Shown: positions 28,653-40,894 of the stretch, piece after piece | Layout: each line of letters starts with the position of its first letter | Position numbering within the stretch: position 1 is the stretch's first letter | Assembly (NCBI GenBank): GCA_965224245.1 | Contig: OZ245046.1 | Location: forward strand, 1,344,001 to 1,408,000 | DNA from: Candidatus Eiseniibacteriota bacterium | GTDB taxonomy: Bacteria > Eisenbacteria > RBG-16-71-46 > CAZAMP01 | Length of the DNA: 64,000 nt | Direction of reading: 5' to 3' | Notes under the pieces: model-generated | What the model was told of the DNA's origin: nothing | What the model saw: only the letters and a program-made list of their open reading frames with translations | Databases searched by the model: none | Position numbers and translations under genes: made by a program

Positions 28653-29249
28653 GTGGAATCGCTCGCGACCGTCGATCGAGACCTCTTCTACCTGATCAAT
28701 CACGGGTGGGCCAACGGGTTTCTCGATCGTGTGTTTCCGTGGATCACGCGCCTCGGGAACTTCTGGCCGATCATCGCCGCGCTGGTCGCGTGGCTGGTCT
28801 GGCGCGGCGGAGCGCGCGGGCGGACCACCCTCCTGGCGGTCGCGCTGTCGATCTCGATCACCGATCCGGTCACCGTGCGCGTGCTGAAGCCGGCGTTTCA
28901 TCGCGAGCGGCCGTGCACCGCCCTCGAGGACACGCGCCTTCTGGCCTCGAGGAAGTCGTCTCCGTCGTTTCCGTCGGCCCACGCGGTGAACGCGTTCGCG
29001 GTCGCGACGGTGTTCGCCGGGTTCTACGCCTCGTCCCTGGTGATCGCGCTGCCGCTGGCGATCGCCGTGGGGCTCTCGCGGGTGTACATCGGGGTGCACT
29101 ACCCGTTCGACGTCCTGGCCGGCGCCGTGCTCGGCACGCTCATCGGCAGCGCCGTGCTGGGCGTCCTCCGGCTGTCGGCCGCGCGCGTCCCGTGGCTCGT
29201 GGCGCCCCGGCGTCCGTTCGCCCCGGCGCTCGGGGAGGAACCCTCGTGA
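28653..29249 (+). CDS. PAP2 family membrane phosphatase (undecaprenyl-PP phosphatase-like)
   Basis: LKPAFHRERP, SFPSAHA, SRVYIGVHYPFDV. Confidence 0.85.
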   Translation: MESLATVDRDLFYLINHGWANGFLDRVFPWITRLGNFWPIIAALVAWLVWRGGARGRTTLLAVALSISITDPVTVRVLKPAFHRERPCTALEDTRLLASRKSSPSFPSAHAVNAFAVATVFAGFYASSLVIALPLAIAVGLSRVYIGVHYPFDVLAGAVLGTLIGSAVLGVLRLSAARVPWLVAPRRPFAPALGEEPS

Positions 29250-30766
29250 CCGGTGCGCCAGGCCGCGTGGACGGCGCCGCGACCGGCGGCGGGGGCGGGG
29301 CGGCGGTCGGGACCGGTCCGGTCACCGGTGCCCCGGGCACGCTTCCCCTCCGGGTGCACGCGTACGTGGGCGGCACGATGCTCGTGGCGGTGCTCGTGAC
29401 CTGGCGGATGGGAGCTCCCGTGGATCCCCCGTTCACGCTCCTGGCCTGGTTTCTGGCCACGCTGGCGACCGAGCTCCTGTGGGTCGAGACGCTCCCGGGG
29501 CAGGCCACGACGTCCGTGGGCGCCGCGATGAACTTCGCATCGCTGTTCATGCTCTCGCCGGCCGGTGCGCTCTGGGTCATCGGTGCGGCGACGTTCCTCG
29601 GCACGCTCGTGCAACGCCGGCGCGCCTACCGCGCGGTGTTCGGGGGGGCCGCCGTCGTGCCGGTGGTGGCGCTGAGCGCGTCGGCGTTCCGCGCACTGGC
29701 CCGGATCGACGGCACGGACGTGAGCTGGATGACGGTCGAGACGGTCGCCGCGATGCTGGTGGCCTTCGTCGCGTTCTTCCTGTCGAACACGTTGATCGTG
29801 GCCGGTGTGATCTCGCTCAGCGAGGGCCAGCCCCTCAGGCGCGTGTGGCGGGAGAACTTCGCCCATCCGACCGAGATCCGCGAGACGGCGGCGCTCTTCG
29901 CGATGAGCCCGTTGATCATGATCGTGTACCGCGCGGTGGGCTGGCCCGGGTTCCTCCTGTTCGCGATCCCGCTGATCGTCCATCGCAACGCGAGCCTTCG
30001 CTTCATGACCCTCGAGCGCACGCAGCGATCGGTGCTGCGGAACGCGCGGCTGGCGGCCAAGGGCGAGATGGCGGCCGAGATCGCGCACGAGCTCAACAAC
30101 AGCCTGGCGGCGCTCGGGGGCAATGCCCAGCTCCTGGAGCATCAGATCGGAGGGGGCGGAGCGCCGGATCAGGCGCGGGTGAGGGCGCGCACGATCCACG
30201 AGCAGGTCGAGCGCATGCGGATCCTGACCGAGGGGCTCGTCGAGTTCGCGCACCGCAATGCCGTCCTCCAGGAGACCGACCTCGTGAGCCTGGTCGAACG
30301 AACGGTCGCGTTCCTGCGACCCCAGAGCCGGTTCGACGGAATCGACGTCCGACTGAACCTGGACGAGAACGTCGGGCTGGTGGCCGTGGACCAGGGACAG
30401 CTGCAGCAGGTGATCGTGAACCTGCTGTTCAACGCGGCCGACGCCACCCGCGAGCGACAGCAGACCGACCCCACCATGTCACCGGTGATCGAGGTTGCGC
30501 TGACGCGCTCGCGACGCGGGCGCGAGATCGGCATCGCCGTGCGGGATCACGGAACCGGGATCGATCGCAGCGTCATCGAGCGGATCTTCGAGCCCACGTT
30601 CACGACGAAGTCCGACGGTCACGGCTTCGGGCTGGCCACGTGCCACCGGATCGTGCAGAGCCACGGGGGGCGCATCGAGGTCGACACCCGGCTCGGGCAC
30701 GGCGCCACGTTCACGGTGGTGCTGCCGACCGCGACCCGGCCCGGCGCTCCGGGCGCAGCCGCCTGA
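29246..30766 (+). CDS. Membrane sensor histidine kinase with a multi-TM (MASE9-like) input domain
   Basis: About 7-8 TM helices, then EIAHELNNSL (H box), NLLFNAADA, DHGTGI, IFEPTFTTK, GHGFGL. Start uncertain. Confidence 0.85.
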   Translation: MTGAPGRVDGAATGGGGGAAVGTGPVTGAPGTLPLRVHAYVGGTMLVAVLVTWRMGAPVDPPFTLLAWFLATLATELLWVETLPGQATTSVGAAMNFASLFMLSPAGALWVIGAATFLGTLVQRRRAYRAVFGGAAVVPVVALSASAFRALARIDGTDVSWMTVETVAAMLVAFVAFFLSNTLIVAGVISLSEGQPLRRVWRENFAHPTEIRETAALFAMSPLIMIVYRAVGWPGFLLFAIPLIVHRNASLRFMTLERTQRSVLRNARLAAKGEMAAEIAHELNNSLAALGGNAQLLEHQIGGGGAPDQARVRARTIHEQVERMRILTEGLVEFAHRNAVLQETDLVSLVERTVAFLRPQSRFDGIDVRLNLDENVGLVAVDQGQLQQVIVNLLFNAADATRERQQTDPTMSPVIEVALTRSRRGREIGIAVRDHGTGIDRSVIERIFEPTFTTKSDGHGFGLATCHRIVQSHGGRIEVDTRLGHGATFTVVLPTATRPGAPGAAA

Positions 30767-34285: not shown

Positions 34286-34315
34286 TTGACAGTTTCCGAA
34301 GCCCTCTGCTACCGT
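34286..34315 (+). promoter_or_regulatory. Putative sigma70 promoter
   Basis: TTGACA-N18-TACCGT with an extended -10 TG. Confidence 0.45.
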
Positions 34316-34399
34316 CGCGCGCTTGGAGCAAATCGATGGGAGCGCCATTTGGGTCTCGTTGACGCGGAAGGTGACGGCGTGCTGTCCGGCGCGCGTCCC

Positions 34400-35404
34400 A
34401 TGAGTTTCTTGCTCGAACAGCGGCGCGATGCGGTCCTGAAGGCGTTCCGTGCGCCGGTCGCGCGCGAGCTCGCGGCGACCGCCGACGTCGTGCGCGACTT
34501 CTACGACTCCCAGAGTCATCTGCTCACGCAGACCGCGGCTCACCTGGACGGCACACCCGGCAAGCGCGTGCGTCCGACGCTGCTCCTGCTGGTCGCTGCG
34601 ATGGGGCGTCCGCTCGATTCCACGGCGGTGATGGCCGCGGCCATGCTGGAGCTGGTACATACGGCCACGCTGATCCACGACGACTCCATCGATCGCAGTC
34701 TCGTGCGCCGCGGGCTTCCCACGATCAACGCACTCTGGGACGACAAGGTCTCGGTCATTCTCGGCGACTATCTCTACACCAAGGCGTTCGAGCGGCTCGT
34801 GGCGGAGAAGCTCTGGAAGCCGGTCGCGATCCTCAGTCGGTGCGCGTACCGCATGTCGCTGGGCGAGCTCCTGGCGATGGAGCAGAAGGACGACATGGGG
34901 CTCGAGGAGGGCGCGTACTTCGAGTACATCTCGGCCAAGACGGCGTCGCTGATCTCCGCCGCCTGCGAGATCGGCGCCGCCATCGGCTTCGACGACGACG
35001 ACACGCACGAGCGGTTCCGGCTGTTCGGGCACGAGCTCGGCATGGCCTATCAGATCACGGACGATCTGTTCGACTACACCGGCGACGCCGCCGCGCTCGG
35101 CAAGGACGTCGGGTCGGACCTGAAGGAAGGCAAGATCACGCTCCCCATCATCCGGGCGCTCCGGCACGCGTCGCCGGACCTGCGCGCGCTGATCCACGAC
35201 GTGCTCGCCGATCGGACGATGTCGGCCGAGCGCTGGCAACGACTGAAGGTGCATCTCGACGAGTCCGGCTCGATCGCGTACTGCGCCGATCTGGCGCGCG
35301 AGTACGCCGACCGCGCGCTGTCTCGGCTCGAGCCGTGCGTTGCGAGCCCTCACAAGGACGCGCTGACGCTGGCGGTCTCGTTCGCCGTGCAGCGCTCCCA
35401 CTGA
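34400..35404 (+). CDS. ispB: Long-chain polyprenyl diphosphate synthase (IspB/HepT-like)
   Basis: GKRVRP, ELVHTATLIHDDSID (small Ala five residues before DDxxD, so long chain), KTASL, YQITDDLFD. Confidence 0.8.
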   Translation: MSFLLEQRRDAVLKAFRAPVARELAATADVVRDFYDSQSHLLTQTAAHLDGTPGKRVRPTLLLLVAAMGRPLDSTAVMAAAMLELVHTATLIHDDSIDRSLVRRGLPTINALWDDKVSVILGDYLYTKAFERLVAEKLWKPVAILSRCAYRMSLGELLAMEQKDDMGLEEGAYFEYISAKTASLISAACEIGAAIGFDDDDTHERFRLFGHELGMAYQITDDLFDYTGDAAALGKDVGSDLKEGKITLPIIRALRHASPDLRALIHDVLADRTMSAERWQRLKVHLDESGSIAYCADLAREYADRALSRLEPCVASPHKDALTLAVSFAVQRSH

Positions 35405-35875: not shown

Positions 35876-36866
35876 CGCGTTTCCCGATCTCGGGGATGGC
35901 GAACGCGTCCGGCTGTCGCTGCCGTCGGTCGGTCCGCGCCAGGCGATCACGTCGGTCGCGCACGCGCTGTCCGCGGCGAGAGGCGCGTCGCTCGACGCGG
36001 CGCTCGCCGCGGCCCGCGATGCGCTGGAGCGGGATCCGGACGTGCAAAGCATCGAGGCTCGATCCCGGGGACTCCTGGCGTTCGACCTGCGTGACGAGTG
36101 GTGGTGGCGGCTCGTCGAGTCGCTGCATGCGACGCGTTACCGAGCGGCGACGTCCGCGTCGGCCGGACGCGTGGACATCGTGGCCGACGCACCCCGGGGC
36201 GGGAGTCGCCGCGATCCCACGTTTGCCCGGGTCGAGCTGGTCGTGGCCGCGCTCGAGCGGGCATGGCGGTGGCGCGGCGCGGACGTCGACGTGAGCGTGG
36301 TGGAAGCGGACGGGGACGGCGGGCGGATCCGCGTGCGACGACCTCGGGGGGACTCGATGCGCCTGAGCGTGGGACCGGTGCGCGCCCGAGGTCTCGACCC
36401 GCGTCGGGCCGAGATCCGTCTGGCCATGCTGGCGCCGGCACCGGCGCAGCCGATCGCCGAGGCCGCCGTCGAGCGGCTTCTCGAAGCGGCCGCGACGGCG
36501 CGGCGACGGATCGCCGACTGGTCGACCCGCGTGGCGTACGCGACCCGCGGGCGCGATCCGCTGGACGCACCGTGCCCGTCGGCGGCCGACGTGGCCGCGC
36601 TGGGACCGACCGCGTGGGTGGCCGTGCGGGCCGCGCTGGGGACAGGGGAGGTGCTCGATCGGCTCGCCGACACCGGGGACGTCGGCGCGATCTGGCGCCA
36701 CGTCTCCGGCGTGATCGCGGCCGGGCGCGCGTTCGAGCGCGAGGCCGGGCTCGTATCCGAGGAGCCCGGTGGGCATCGCGCCCGTCTCGCCGTCGCCGAT
36801 CTCGTTCGGCGAGCAGCTCTGGTAGGATTTGACGTTGCCGGTGTCGAGGCACCGAGCCGACTCTGA
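35823..36866 (+). CDS. Degenerate arginyl-tRNA synthetase-like protein (N-terminal and DALR-like domains, no HIGH/KMSKS)
   Basis: N-terminal segment resembles the ArgRS Add1 domain (...SIEARSRGLLAFDL). C-terminus RARLAVADLVRRAALVGFDVAGVEAPSRL resembles the DALR end. Open 347-aa frame. Confidence 0.55.
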   Translation: MRNAFPSLRGPLRRKLADAFPDLGDGERVRLSLPSVGPRQAITSVAHALSAARGASLDAALAAARDALERDPDVQSIEARSRGLLAFDLRDEWWWRLVESLHATRYRAATSASAGRVDIVADAPRGGSRRDPTFARVELVVAALERAWRWRGADVDVSVVEADGDGGRIRVRRPRGDSMRLSVGPVRARGLDPRRAEIRLAMLAPAPAQPIAEAAVERLLEAAATARRRIADWSTRVAYATRGRDPLDAPCPSAADVAALGPTAWVAVRAALGTGEVLDRLADTGDVGAIWRHVSGVIAAGRAFEREAGLVSEEPGGHRARLAVADLVRRAALVGFDVAGVEAPSRL

Positions 36867-36879
36867 CGAGGTGGAGCTC

Positions 36880-37818
36880 ATGAGCGTGCTGGTGGTTGGA
36901 TCGGTGGCCCTGGACGACATCCGAACGCCGTCGGGGCATGCGCCCCGCGTGCTCGGCGGATCCGCGTCGTACTTCTCGCTGGCGGCACGCGTGTTCGCGC
37001 CCGTGCGCATCGTGGCGGTGGTGGGCGAGGACTTTCCCACCGAGCACCTGTCGATGCTCGCCGGTCGCGGCATCGACGTGACGGGAGTGGCCCGCGAGCC
37101 CGGCGAGAGCTTCTTCTGGGCCGGCTCGTACGACGCGGATCTGAAGCAGGCGACCACGCACGAGACGCGTCTCGGAGTGTTCGAGACGTTCGCCCCGGTG
37201 CTCTCCGCCGACCAGCGGCGATCGCCGTACGTGTTCCTGGCCAACATCGATCCCGAGCTCCAGGCCTCGGTCCTGGATCAGGTCTCGGACGCGCGTCTGG
37301 TCGTCATGGACACGATGAACTTCTGGATCCAGGGCAAGCGTCCCGCCCTCGAGCGGGTCCTGCCACGCGTGGACGTCGTCCTCGTGAACGACGAGGAGCT
37401 GGCGCTCTTGACCGGTGACCACGACGTCATCCGGGCGTCGCGCACGTTTCTGGAGAGCGACTTCGCGCCGCGACGCGGCGTGGTGATCAAGAAGGGCGCG
37501 AACGGCGCGCTGCTTCGCACCCGAGACGATCTCTTCGCCATGCCCGCATTTCCCACCGAGTGCGTGGTGGACCCCACCGGCGCCGGCGACACCTTTGCCG
37601 GCGGCTTCGTGGGGCACGTGGCGGCCCGCGACGCCACCGATTCGGGGGTCCTTCGCGAGGCGACGGCGCGGGGCATCGCGATGGCCTCGTTCACGGTGGA
37701 GGCGTTCTCGACCGACCGTCTCGCGCGGGTCACGCCAGCCGAGCTGACGACCCGGCTCGACATGCTTCGCGACATGACGCGCATCGACGTCCCGTCCGGC
37801 GCGCGAGTGGGACGGTAG
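36880..37818 (+). CDS. PfkB family carbohydrate/nucleoside kinase
   Basis: VVGSVALD, GGSASY, DPTGAGDTFAGG. Confidence 0.88.
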   Translation: MSVLVVGSVALDDIRTPSGHAPRVLGGSASYFSLAARVFAPVRIVAVVGEDFPTEHLSMLAGRGIDVTGVAREPGESFFWAGSYDADLKQATTHETRLGVFETFAPVLSADQRRSPYVFLANIDPELQASVLDQVSDARLVVMDTMNFWIQGKRPALERVLPRVDVVLVNDEELALLTGDHDVIRASRTFLESDFAPRRGVVIKKGANGALLRTRDDLFAMPAFPTECVVDPTGAGDTFAGGFVGHVAARDATDSGVLREATARGIAMASFTVEAFSTDRLARVTPAELTTRLDMLRDMTRIDVPSGARVGR

Positions 37819-37948: not shown

Positions 37949-38680
37949 GTGCCAGTGGACATCGGTGACGACGCGACCCGCCGACGGGTCGAAGACAGCC
38001 TCGCGCGCATCGACGGTGTCGAGCACGTTCGCATCGTCGCGTCCGGGTCCCAGATCACCGAGGTTCACGTCGTGGCCCGCGACGTCCGTCCGCCCAAGCA
38101 GGTCGCGCGCGACATCGTCTCGGCGCTCCGGGCCGTTCACGACGTCGACGTCGACCACCGCAAGGTGAGCGTGGCCACGTTCGGGCCGAAGGCGGGCCGC
38201 TCGGACCCGTCTCCGACCCGTGGGAAGCCCTTTGTCTCCGAAAATGGTAGAGGTAGGGGTCGTATTTGCTTGTCGTCGATCTCCTTACGTGATTCCAGGT
38301 CTGACGTCGACGTGGAGGTGGCGCTCGTTTGCGGCGGGCGAGAGGTCTCCGGTCGGGCCCGCGGGCCCGCGGGCGGAGATCGCATCGCGCGCCTGATGGC
38401 CTCGGCCACGGCCCGGGCCGTCGGGCATCTGCTCGACGCGCGCTATCGCGTGGACACCGACGACGTTCGCCTTGTATCGTTCGCCTCTCGGCGAGCGGTG
38501 CTGGTCACGGTGACGGTCGGGTGCAACCGCGAGCGGCGCGAGCTGCTGGGGAGCGCCTGGATCGACGACGACGTCGGCGGCGCCGCGGTGCATGCGACGC
38601 TGGACGCGGTCAACCGCGTCTTCGGTCGCCTGGATCGCCGGAAGACAACCGAATACGTGGTGGGGCCGTCGTCTCCCTGA
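37949..38680 (+). CDS. Conserved hypothetical protein (EVHVV...PKQVARDI...DHRKVSVA family)
   Basis: Coding-like codon use and a recognisable conserved N-terminal block. C-terminal beta-beta-beta-alpha repeat ends ATLDAVNR. Start uncertain (37949 or 37955). Confidence 0.65.
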   Translation: MPVDIGDDATRRRVEDSLARIDGVEHVRIVASGSQITEVHVVARDVRPPKQVARDIVSALRAVHDVDVDHRKVSVATFGPKAGRSDPSPTRGKPFVSENGRGRGRICLSSISLRDSRSDVDVEVALVCGGREVSGRARGPAGGDRIARLMASATARAVGHLLDARYRVDTDDVRLVSFASRRAVLVTVTVGCNRERRELLGSAWIDDDVGGAAVHATLDAVNRVFGRLDRRKTTEYVVGPSSP

Positions 38681-38690
38681 GCGACGAACC

Positions 38691-38721
38691 AGCGTAGCGA
38701 GTAGCGTCCATAGCGTAGCGA
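38691..38721 (+). promoter_or_regulatory. Direct repeat AGCGTAGCGA x2 with a 21-bp period, putative regulator binding site
   Basis: 38691-38700 and 38712-38721 are identical 10-mers, with an additional GTAGCG between them. Confidence 0.45.
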
Positions 38722-38770
38722 CTTTGCCCGGGAAGATCCCGTTCCTGTCTCCTTCCGGAGGTGGAGTCGT

Positions 38771-38833
38771 ATGGCAGCACTCGTTGACCTCATCTTGACC
38801 ATCCTGTCGCTGGGTGGTCGCGCTGGCTGGTAG
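38771..38833 (+). CDS. 20-aa hydrophobic peptide MAALVDLILTILSLGGRAGW (candidate signalling peptide precursor)
   Basis: GGAGGTGGAG Shine-Dalgarno immediately upstream of ATG, TAG stop, otherwise empty intergenic gap. Below the ORF-track size cutoff. Confidence 0.65.
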   Translation: MAALVDLILTILSLGGRAGW

Positions 38834-38902
38834 AACGGTCGGCGTAAACAGGTGTAGCCGCCGGTCCCACCCGAGTTTCCGCCCCGACCCCACGAGAGCC
38901 CG

Positions 38903-39934
38903 ATGGACTACAAGACCAGCGGCGTCGACATCGAGGCCGCGTCCTCGGCTCTGGACCGGGTCGGCGCACTCATTCGCCGGACGCACGGGGCCCACGTGGT
39001 CCGGTTGGAGTCCGGCTTCGCCGGCGCCTTCCGCCTGGGCGACACCGATCGCATCCTCCTGGCCTCGATCGACGGCGTCGGCACGAAGCTGATGATCGCC
39101 GTGCGTCTGGGGCGATACCGCTCGGTCGGCGGCGACCTGGTCCGCCACTGCGTCAACGACGTGCTCGTGCACGGGGGGCGCCCCCTGGTCTTCCTCGACT
39201 ACGTGGGCACCGCGAGGCTCCGCGCCGAGTGGCTGGCCGAGGTGGTGGGCGGCATGGCCGATGCCTGTGGCGAGGTCGGCTGCGCCCTGATCGGCGGTGA
39301 GACGGCCGAGATGCCCGGGATCTACCACGGCGACGACTTCGATCTGGTCGGGGCCATCGTCGGCGAGGTGGACGCCGGGTCGCTGCTGGACGGCGGGCGG
39401 GTCCGGCCCGGCGACATGCTCCTGGGGCTGGCCTCGGACGGCCTGCACACCAACGGCTTCTCCCTGGCCCGCGAGGTCGTGCGCGAGCGGGCGGGCGACG
39501 ATCTGGCGCGGCCGCTCCCGGGGAGCGAGACGAGCTGGGGGGACGCCCTCCTGGCCCCGCATCGGAGCTACTACCGGGCCCTGGCCCCGGAGATCGGGGG
39601 GGAGCGTGTCCATGCGCTGGCCCACGTCACCGGCGGGGGCATCGGCGGCAATCTGACCCGCGTGCTGCCCGAGGGCCTGGTGGCCGAGGTGGATCGGGCC
39701 TCGTGGCCGGTGCCCGAGGTCTTCGGGGCCATCGCGTCGCTCGGCGAGGTGTCCGAGCCCGAGATGTTCCGGGCGTTCAACATGGGGATCGGCTACGTGG
39801 TCGTGACCCCGTCCGAGGCCGCGCCGGCGCTCGAGGCCGACCTCCGGGAGCGGGGAGAGCGCGTGTTCCGGATCGGGCGCGTCCGCGCCGGCGACGCCCC
39901 GGGAGGCCACCGGGTGGACCTCGGCTGGGGTTGA
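38903..39934 (+). CDS. purM: Phosphoribosylformylglycinamidine cyclo-ligase
   Basis: YKTSGVDI, DGVGTKL, GGETAEMPG, GLHTNGFSL, HVTGGG, FNMGIG. Confidence 0.95.
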   Translation: MDYKTSGVDIEAASSALDRVGALIRRTHGAHVVRLESGFAGAFRLGDTDRILLASIDGVGTKLMIAVRLGRYRSVGGDLVRHCVNDVLVHGGRPLVFLDYVGTARLRAEWLAEVVGGMADACGEVGCALIGGETAEMPGIYHGDDFDLVGAIVGEVDAGSLLDGGRVRPGDMLLGLASDGLHTNGFSLAREVVRERAGDDLARPLPGSETSWGDALLAPHRSYYRALAPEIGGERVHALAHVTGGGIGGNLTRVLPEGLVAEVDRASWPVPEVFGAIASLGEVSEPEMFRAFNMGIGYVVVTPSEAAPALEADLRERGERVFRIGRVRAGDAPGGHRVDLGWG

Positions 39935-39993: not shown

Positions 39994-40070
39994 GGGCGAT
40001 TAGCTCAGCTGGTTAGAGTGCCTGCTTGACATGCAGGAGGTCACTGGTTCAAGTCCAGTATCGCCCACCA
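39994..40070 (+). tRNA. tRNA-Val(GAC)
   Basis: GGGCGATTAGCTCAG..., CCTGC-TTGACAT-GCAGG, GGTTCAAGTCC, CCA. Confidence 0.97.
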
Positions 40071-40087
40071 GAACGACAGTAGTTGGC

Positions 40088-40296
40088 ACACAAGCGGAAG
40101 CCGCCCGGCTTCTCACCTCCAAGCGCGCGCGCCCCTCCGAGGGGCGTGGTCGACGTTTCGTGGGGTCGGTGCCGCACGATCGCCCTCGCTGCCCTGATCG
40201 GCGACGCGGGCCTCGTGCGACGGCGATCGGTCCCGGACCGGTCGTGGCACCGTCGGACGTTGCGGGCGGCACCGGATGTGCCGGCCCGTTTTTTTG
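40088..40296 (+). ncRNA. L20 leader-type attenuator upstream of infC-rpmI-rplT
   Basis: AAGCGGAAGCCGCCCGGCTTCTCACCT resembles the Bacillus L20 leader core. GCCGCCCG (40100-40107) is complementary to the terminator left arm CGGGCGGC (40263-40270). Terminator hairpin plus T7. Confidence 0.7.
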
Positions 40297-40342
40297 TGTT
40301 CGCGCCGCCTCTCGGGGGGCGAACCGATCAGGAGGAGTCGAC

Positions 40343-40894
40343 ATACCGCGACCGAGACCGCGTGATCGCGGGCCCGAGAAGGCCCGCGAGCCCCGAGTGA
40401 ACGATCGTATTCGGATCCCCCAGATCCGTCTCATCGGGGCCGATGGTGAGCAGATCGGACTGGTCAACACGCGCGACGCGTTGACGATGGCCCAGGAGCA
40501 GGGGCTCGACCTCGTCGAGGTCGCGCCCGGCGCCAAGCCGCCGGTCTGTCGCATCATGGACTACGGAAAGTTCAAATACGATCAGTCGAAGAAGGAGCGG
40601 AAGGCGCGACAGAACCAGCACACCGTGTCGCTCAAAGAGGTCAAGTTTCGCCCGCGCATCGACGACCACGACTACGAGTTCAAGGTCGCCAACGCGCGGA
40701 AGTTCCTCGAGGGCAAGGACAAGGTGAAGCTGACGATTCAGTTTCGGGGACGTGAGATGGCACACCGCGAGTTCGGACATCGCCTCCTGGATCGCGTCCT
40801 CGCGGATCTCGAAGACATCGCCCAGGTCGAGACGCCGCCTCGCAGCGAGGGGCGTTTCATACACATGGTCGTCGCGCCGAAGAAGACCCAGTAG
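40343..40894 (+). CDS. infC: Translation initiation factor IF-3 (non-canonical ATA start)
   Basis: VNDRIRIPQIRLI, LDLVEVAP, PPVCRIMDYGKFKY, KEVKFRP, FRGRE. GGAGG is 7 nt before an in-frame ATA. Confidence 0.92.
   Translation: MPRPRPRDRGPEKAREPRVNDRIRIPQIRLIGADGEQIGLVNTRDALTMAQEQGLDLVEVAPGAKPPVCRIMDYGKFKYDQSKKERKARQNQHTVSLKEVKFRPRIDDHDYEFKVANARKFLEGKDKVKLTIQFRGREMAHREFGHRLLDRVLADLEDIAQVETPPRSEGRFIHMVVAPKKTQ

Follow-up and report, generated by a model that had tools for sequence, protein, structure and literature searches.

What is a 20-codon open reading frame (ORF) ending in tryptophan doing between a conserved hypothetical gene and purM, and is it a gene at all? The question is raised by a stretch of 64,000 nucleotides rich in guanine and cytosine (GC) from a Candidatus Eiseniibacteriota bacterium (assembly GCA_965224245.1, contig OZ245046.1, positions 1,344,001 to 1,408,000 of the forward strand), which we call the window and whose own positions are used throughout. 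On its plus strand, the hypothetical gene, here named hyp (37949-38680), is followed by a 90-nt spacer, by the 63-nt micro-ORF (38771-38833) and, after another 69 nt, by purM, which encodes AIR (aminoimidazole ribonucleotide) synthase (38903-39934). Judged by its conservation and codon usage, the micro-ORF appears to be a real micro-gene, translated-looking and under selection at the amino-acid level. A covarying RNA domain, consisting of a long-range duplex and a helix that masks the Shine-Dalgarno (SD) sequence, is predicted to wrap it, and the product is probably a very small regulatory peptide of a type not described before. As far as we have seen, the family is confined to Candidatus Eisenbacteria.

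The micro-ORF family and its genomic place

The micro-ORF starts at ATG 38771 and comprises 20 codons and a TAG stop (38831-38833). Its product, MAALVDLILTILSLGGRAGW, can be read directly from the sequence, as can the SD sequence GGAGGTGGAG ahead of it (38757-38766, plus strand); the AAGGAGGTG of this region is invariant in alignment A2. An earlier sequence-only reading of the locus had announced just such a strong ribosome-binding site in front of a Trp-ended 20-residue peptide, and both are borne out. A mechanical ORF list with a minimum of 20 amino acids includes the micro-ORF as well. Within the 6,936,481-base genome it stands alone: a scan for SD-preceded ORFs of 8-70 codons ending in [G/T/S][K/R][A/G/S/N]GW, with an optional final M, I or F, returned one ORF, that of the window.

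Of 41 relatives, 31 have a homologue of hyp; across the phylum the count is 155 of 206 genomes (a tally that includes genome G083), and one family of relatives yields 0 of 41. We examined the locus in 76 related genomes, a sample that was chosen rather than random, uniting loci returned by searches with 48 regions fetched to cover every family. An equivalent of the micro-ORF occupies the corresponding position in 55 of them. Where hyp is followed by a gene for a MASE9-HD-GYP phosphodiesterase, the micro-ORF stands between the two genes in 53 of 54 genomes; of the 15 loci with purM immediately behind hyp, a single one has it, that of the window; and among the seven loci with neither HD-GYP nor purM in reach, one carries it and one more is cut inside it. 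That hyp homologues often neighbour tiny hydrophobic ORFs of a G(A/G)xxW type and membrane HD-GYP or kinase sensors had been put forward earlier, and the survey of hyp flanks agrees, with hydrophobic micro-ORFs ending in G(K/R)xGW beside MASE9-HD-GYP genes in those 53 of 54 genomes. The single exception, G002 (locus L079), has hyp followed by the HD-GYP gene across a 256-nt spacer without a W-ended small ORF, and its hyp sits on a long branch. At loci L076-L078 (families f12 and f5), the spacer from hyp to the micro-ORF measures 320-475 nt compared with about 100 nt, and the HD-GYP gene lies 400-500 nt further on, with the peptide retained as ..LGGRAGW.

The gene behind the micro-ORF of the relatives encodes a protein of about 440 residues with MASE9 and HD_5/HD domains, the layout of a membrane enzyme that degrades cyclic di-GMP. 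When three of these proteins were scanned against Pfam, HD_5 was matched at E 1e-30 to 1e-38 and MASE9 scored above the cut-off in two; across 22 sequences, H302 D303, H356 H357 E358 and G364 Y365 show no variation and P366 hardly any. In relatives, purM is placed after this gene. At the window locus the MASE9-HD-GYP gene is missing, and purM lies directly behind the micro-ORF element; this absence, like the RNA domain described below, had escaped the earlier sequence-only reading. The micro-ORF and its RNA element persist without that gene, and the distance from the leader to the next gene is unchanged, with purM at 70 nt compared with 71 nt.

Residue and codon statistics were obtained for 53 peptides, a filter having dropped the WW-ended peptides of G011 and G025. 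The family ends in G-[K/R]-[A/S/G]-G-W: the tryptophan is present in 53 of 53 sequences, the second glycine in 50 and a basic residue in 52 (lysine in 33, arginine in 19), while the first glycine is kept in 44 and the central position is occupied by A, S, G or N in 40, 7, 3 and 3 peptides, respectively. All four glycine and all four alanine codons are in use within the motif, and lysine AAR alternates with arginine CGN/AGA. Column entropy by codon position is 0.83/0.31/1.07 over 22 ORFs of 16 codons, which amounts to a three-base periodicity, and relatives differ in micro-ORF length by whole codons. The GGRAGW of the window peptide is identical to that of four other families. Stop codons were counted as well: the 53 micro-ORFs use TAA 28, TAG 22 and TGA 3 times, as against TGA 194, TAG 94 and TAA 21 for same-locus open frames of at least 300 codons, some of which are spurious; for hyp the figures are TAG 24, TGA 22 and TAA 7. 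TGA is thus rare in the micro-ORFs of genomes with 69% GC in which it otherwise dominates. This preference for TAA and avoidance of TGA fits selection for clean termination.

Many of the micro-peptides have only 12-16 residues, their N-terminal part ranging from 3 to about 20 residues, and other members contain the terminal unit more than once. One family carries GGHAWW three times or GGHTWW twice, and another carries [D/E]GK[A/G]GW three times. A 49-residue three-unit form is represented by 32 database clusters of 41-50 residues, called 'hypothetical protein' wherever the source gives a name. An alignment of 21 three-unit forms shows little or no variation in the leader MLSILMLLAD and in each of the three GK[A/G]GW units, and the linkers differ in both sequence and length. 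Selection on internal copies of the motif while the linkers drift is hard to explain by a stall at the stop codon, but natural for a unit that binds at the peptide level. Hydrophobic segments of membrane-span length were not found in the main family, and longer stretches are seen in some families only (MKWGWLALIVSIALRVLPGKAGW, MPKLIYTIIAALLSYITVSGG). Judging from these forms, the peptide would consist of a short hydrophobic/acidic helix and one to three G-[K/R]-x-G-W units. Genes of 12-20 codons, which gene callers miss, are thereby detectable through conservation alone.

An RNA element around the micro-ORF

The leader downstream of hyp contains short repeats and two helices. The repeat AGCGNAGCG, which in the window occupies 38691-38720 (plus strand; AGCGTAGCG at 38691-38699 and again at 38712-38720, with AGTAGCG between), is found in 52 of 53 leaders. 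AGCG occurs at a median of four copies per leader, with a density of 3.81 per 100 nt in leaders compared with 0.65 in the loci. The first helix involves the strand CCATAGCGTAGCGACTTTGCCC (38708-38729, plus strand), which both the minimum free energy (MFE) fold and the centroid fold pair with 38755-38774, the region of the SD sequence and start codon. In relatives, a strand such as GGACCCACCT, located some 50-60 nt upstream, is complementary to AGGTGGG of the SD region, and six of the seven pairs of this anti-SD helix show changes on both sides.

The second helix, here called P1, is a long-range one, in which the last codons of hyp pair with a motif beyond the micro-ORF, giving a whole element of about 240 nt. 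Its 5' arm (e.g. TGAGACCGACATCG) encodes the conserved ...LRPTS end of hyp or, in some genera, lies just past the hyp stop; the 3' motif (e.g. CGATGTCGGTCTCA) starts 7-25 nt past the micro-ORF stop in five families and 35-80 nt past it in the largest two. The window arms, both on the plus strand, are GGTGGGGCCGTCG at 38659-38671, within the last codons of hyp and recovered by pairing search and MFE fold, and CGCCGGTCCCACC at 38859-38871, 25 nt past the micro-ORF stop and 32 nt ahead of purM. Compensatory changes in P1 exchange GAC/GTC for GTC/GAC, GGC/GCC or GGGACC/GGTCCC. In an alignment of 44 sequences with 14 + 7 named pairs, 81.7% of the cells are paired, compared with 37-46% when the strands are slid; changes on both sides occur in 15 of the 21 named pairs, and none of 500 shuffles matched the observed values. 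With internal loops, the two arms pair over a median of 24 bp at -38.4 kcal/mol (z -5.1); the duplex reaches at least 18 bp in all 44 sequences and encloses 214-288 nt in 42 of them, the two longest elements being three-unit forms. A run of four Ts follows the 3' arm within 14 nt in 15 of the 44, compared with 0.6% of same-locus background intervals; no such U-run follows the duplex in the other 29 genomes or in the window. The start of the HD-GYP gene lies only about 45-60 nt past the 3' arm.

For the window itself, ungapped P1 comprises 13 bp with one mismatch (z 1.6), and extended P1 comprises 27 bp (-38.4 kcal/mol, z -3.0). P1 is part of the MFE fold of 38655-38885, in which both the SD sequence and the start codon are paired with 38708-38729; the energy of this fold, -102.4 kcal/mol (z -3.2), was matched by none of 200 shuffles. 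A local hairpin at the micro-ORF stop codon, by comparison, does not stand out from shuffles (median z -0.66), and Rfam returned nothing relevant at E≤10 for the window or at E≤1 for the loci of 14 relatives. An 18-nt RNA motif from the element was found at 28 places in the contig collection, 14 of them with a micro-ORF; the places without one are in line with a rough estimate of about 17 chance matches. The ...LRPTS codons at the C-terminal end of Eisenbacteria hyp (window 38641-38680) double as the 5' arm of the duplex, whereas Latescibacterota homologues, which are without the RNA element, end in ...EYRIK instead. A covarying duplex that extends from the end of one gene to the far side of the next micro-gene would be an unusual way of tying together the expression of genes in one operon.

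The hyp protein and neighbouring genes

The 243-residue hyp product, for which an identical database protein exists, belongs to a large family (4185 representative clusters at E≤1e-3, 758 at E≤1e-30) that matched no Pfam family at E≤0.01 and no NCBIfam family above noise. The blocks EVHVV, PKQVARDI and DHRKVSVA, to which the sequence-only reading had drawn attention, are indeed present and form the conserved core of the family (alignment A1); identity between the window protein and its nearest relative is 45%. An AlphaFold2 model built with 28 sequences (predicted local distance difference test score, pLDDT, 88.7) shows a ferredoxin-like alpha/beta domain in residues 1-79, with generic matches at Z about 8, and two beta-beta-beta-alpha units in residues 104-226, the fold of the LeuA_dimer regulatory domain. 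Between them, residues 82-102 form a disordered linker (pLDDT under 50) whose length varies among homologues; window positions 38220-38300, which code for part of it, are markedly lower in GC. The modeled C-terminal domain matches the isoleucine-binding regulatory domain of LiCMS (3f6g_B) at Z 9.1 with a root-mean-square deviation of 3.0 over 108 residues, followed by 3fig_A (Z 7.7) and M. tuberculosis LeuA (1sr9_B, Foldseek E 3.4e-6). The Atlas likewise names the hyp cluster for the LeuA-regulatory type and reports it in Eisenbacteria and Gemmatimonadota. While hyp thus shares the fold of two beta-beta-beta-alpha units with LeuA and citramalate synthase, it differs from them in having no catalytic domain and no Pfam match, and in being fused to a ferredoxin-like domain.

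The link between hyp and HD-GYP extends beyond the range of the peptide. Three Latescibacterota-type loci (L104-L106) keep the order pfkB-hyp-MASE9/HD-GYP-purM, with the hyp stop abutting the HD-GYP start in two of them, and in 12 Acidimicrobiia loci (L135-L146) hyp lies divergently beside an HD-GYP gene; no W-ended small ORF was found beside hyp in any of these 15 loci. Since the two genes co-occur in two further phyla without the peptide, hyp is linked to HD-GYP independently of it, and, judging from this neighborhood and the modeled fold, hyp is probably a partner of the HD-GYP enzyme and not a processor of the peptide. Of the suggestion that hyp serves as a 'processing or partner factor', the first half is not supported, the regulatory-domain fold giving no sign of a protease or modifying enzyme. 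Being a large family linked to HD-GYP genes in three phyla, hyp is likely a previously unrecognized component of cyclic di-GMP (c-di-GMP) signaling.

A further candidate for contact with the peptide lies 8 kb upstream of hyp. There the window encodes a MASE9-like histidine kinase (28706-30766, plus strand) that matches the MASE9 part of a relative's HD-GYP protein at E 4.4e-12 (tblastn). Pfam assigns it HisKA and HATPase_c, with MASE9 at E 0.005, below the cut-off, and with a relative's MASE9-HD-GYP as query it is the only MASE9-like protein found in the genome. This makes it a possible peptide receptor; orthologues, however, lie 5-9 kb upstream of hyp in hyp-purM genomes that have neither HD-GYP nor the peptide, so that the kinase is not specifically tied to the peptide.

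The remaining neighbors are conventional in their domains. A pfkB-family kinase gene (36829-37818, plus strand; Pfam PfkB) is the conserved upstream neighbor of hyp, with synteny in Eisenbacteria and Latescibacterota, and purM (Pfam AIRS and AIRS_C), likewise assigned with the help of synteny, is followed by infC, pheS and pheT. The infC ORF (40031-40894, plus strand) has about 120 residues ahead of its IF3_N domain (domains at 123-284), an excess that probably reflects a start called too early and not a real extension. A polyprenyl synthetase gene (34286-35404, plus strand), 3.5 kb upstream, belongs to the same Pfam family as ComQ; it lies outside the conserved synteny of the relatives and is for this reason probably unrelated to the micro-ORF locus.

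How the peptide may act

We tentatively favor, with a probability of roughly 0.45, a peptide that acts in trans within the cell as a partner or ligand of the hyp/MASE9-HD-GYP pair and whose synthesis is gated by the surrounding RNA. The SD sequence and start codon of the micro-ORF would be sequestered by the upstream anti-SD strand, within an element of about 240 nt that some 24 bp of duplex close off. Because the last hyp codons make up the 5' arm, ribosomes completing hyp would have to open this duplex, and the melting could couple translation of the micro-ORF to that of hyp. Where the duplex and a U-run form a terminator, expression of HD-GYP-purM might also be coupled to hyp and the micro-ORF. 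The released peptide would then act on the signaling pair in trans; in the window genome, whose locus no longer has an HD-GYP gene, the peptide would be left with hyp and possibly the MASE9-like kinase as targets. We count the conserved internal copies of the motif, the exchange of lysine and arginine, the bias for TAA and the survival of the ORF without HD-GYP as points for action in trans.

Several observations weigh against this reading. Some peptides are very short, down to eight residues (MKMGKAGW) in one genome, and in the largest family the peptides, with some 10-11 hydrophobic/acidic residues (MDLILELVTFFGRAGW), contain acidic side chains and are unable to cross a membrane. The position in the leader of HD-GYP-purM, the restriction of conservation to the last five residues and the U-run past the duplex in 15 of 44 genomes fit a cis-acting leader peptide equally well. 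On the RNA side, RNAalifold recovers only four pairs in the 5' part, with no compensatory change, the MFE of one relative's element is unexceptional (z -1.6), and P1 was discovered by searching the very sequences that serve as its support, which favors it. Finally, the 14 genomes without HD-GYP and peptide fall into one clade of 17 rows (98% support in the Shimodaira-Hasegawa-like approximate likelihood ratio test) of a quick, midpoint-rooted hyp tree, for which a careful search is unfinished, so that the joint absence of peptide and HD-GYP may be a single evolutionary event.

A more specific version of the trans-acting peptide is a two-step device, in which translation of hyp licenses the peptide and the G-[K/R]-x-G-W units act on the signaling pair; we consider it doubtful in this full form. 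The units could serve as an intramembrane or interfacial ligand of MASE9, or else the free C-terminal tryptophan could mediate binding to c-di-GMP or to the amino-acid-type pocket of hyp; a basic residue next to tryptophan provides a chemistry that stacks on guanine. If such a device exists, it would bring to light a natural ligand of a MASE9 sensor for the first time, together with a new operon-internal RNA switch that reads the translation of the preceding gene. To our knowledge, no signal is known for MASE9 or for most membrane HD-GYP sensors, and a micro-peptide genetically fixed next to MASE9-HD-GYP is a concrete candidate for one.

Among the competing explanations, the one that survives best, though we hold it to be on the unlikely side, is a cis-acting leader or arrest peptide. 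The nascent ...G(K/R)AGW would arrest translation at the stop codon or beside it, possibly under the influence of a small molecule or of the supply of Trp-tRNA, and the stalled ribosome would block the duplex and its U-run and so set read-through into HD-GYP-purM, or into purM in the window; the released peptide would have no function. In 53 of 54 genomes the ORF sits in the leader of these genes and reads in their direction, which would suit such a role, as would conservation of five C-terminal residues behind a variable N-terminal part, a 3' arm 7-25 nt past the stop in five families, the enrichment of T4 runs (15/44 against 0.6%), the little room left for a promoter between this arm and the HD-GYP start, and the fusion of the leader to purM at equal distance (70 compared with 71 nt). 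R-A-G also resembles the SecM RAGP / RAPP arrest motifs, and KGWW resembles E. coli TrpL. A stall at the stop codon does not, however, account for internal motif copies that precede Asp and are conserved in at least 20 divergent sequences. The largest family has its 3' arm 35-80 nt past the stop, beyond the reach of a terminating ribosome, and 29 of the 44 genomes as well as the window lack the U-run. TAA is favored and TGA avoided, the hairpin at the stop codon does not exceed shuffles, and the downstream genes are neither tryptophan nor aromatic ones. A Trp-codon attenuator of the TrpL type was rejected separately, as HD-GYP and purM lie downstream and a gene for DAHP (3-deoxy-D-arabino-heptulosonate 7-phosphate) synthase follows purM in only four loci, three of which lack the peptide.

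The window ORF in particular might be a decaying relic of the HD-GYP deletion, in a family that still works in other genomes. The window is the only one of the 15 hyp-purM loci with the ORF, its hyp sits on a long branch (1.81 in the quick tree), a U-run is missing past its duplex, and its ungapped P1 helix alone is not significant. Yet the ORF is intact, with a strong SD sequence and a GGRAGW shared identically with four other families, and both the anti-SD helix and the extended duplex have been kept although hyp and its nearest relative share 45% identity. We hold decay to be improbable.

The sequence-only reading had gone further and proposed the architecture of a quorum-sensing precursor. 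Spelt out for an exported peptide or a ribosomally synthesized and post-translationally modified one, the hydrophobic leader would be removed and a GRAGW or RAGW tail secreted and sensed outside by MASE9 sensors. The layout of leader and core, the multi-core forms with two or three repeated units, the membrane sensor gene adjacent in 53 of 54 relatives and a Gly-Gly ahead of the tail in about four or five families, that of the window included, are compatible with this. But the Gly-Gly is not conserved, glycine being found at position -5 in 44 of 53 peptides and at position -6 in only 7 (F in 20, L in 11, D in 6, E in 4), there is no Sec-type signal, and the eight-residue form has no leader at all. 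No protease, transporter or modifying-enzyme gene lies within the conserved locus, and Peptidase_C39 (PF03412) gave no match in this 97.4%-complete genome, compared with matches in 7 of 14 control genomes, other exporters not having been searched. The work that defines MASE9 suggests that ligands bind within the membrane, describes the periplasmic loops as poorly conserved and names no ligand or partner (bioRxiv 10.1101/2021.11.05.467447), which also argues against sensing from outside. We regard export as very improbable, and the precursor architecture as not upheld.

A hydrophobic peptide of type I toxin character, silenced by fold-back RNA in the manner of hok or AapA and unrelated to its neighbors, would explain a small hydrophobic product, a sequestered SD sequence and a long-range 5'-3' duplex of constant element size around the ORF (214-288 nt in 42 of 44), but is hardly credible for peptides that in the main family are acidic, amphipathic and of insufficient length to cross a membrane, that occur in one copy in this genome, the one scanned, at a fixed syntenic place inherited vertically across the phylum, and that have no Rfam match and no antisense RNA in sight, none having been looked for.

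A shallow literature search found no published description of a G(K/R)xGW peptide or of an HD-GYP-linked micro-ORF, and the closest parallels each cover part of the features. The mRNAs of hok and AapA1 also sequester their SD sequence and pair over a long range from 5' to 3' around a small hydrophobic ORF; the micro-ORF, in contrast, is single-copy, occupies a vertically inherited operon position, shows no sign of mobility and has no known antisense RNA. SecM with RAGP, ApdA/ApdP with RAPP, TnaC and TrpL share with it a short ORF in a leader, C-terminal conservation and a nearby RNA structure. The micro-ORF departs from these leader peptides in its internal conserved motif copies, in peptides too short for force-release, in a closing duplex that reaches back into the preceding gene, and in that HD-GYP and purM, rather than secretion or tryptophan genes, lie downstream. 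For a peptide that would act in trans, the nearest comparison is with MgrB-PhoQ and SafA-PhoQ, where the gene for a tiny hydrophobic product likewise lies next to, or goes together with, that of a membrane sensor. MgrB and SafA need no enzyme and act by binding, an interaction that we only propose for the micro-peptide; they span the membrane, which the main micro-ORF family is too short to do, and are without an invariant C-terminal motif, repeated units or a long-range RNA lock, features seen in the micro-ORF family, the repeated units in some of its lineages.

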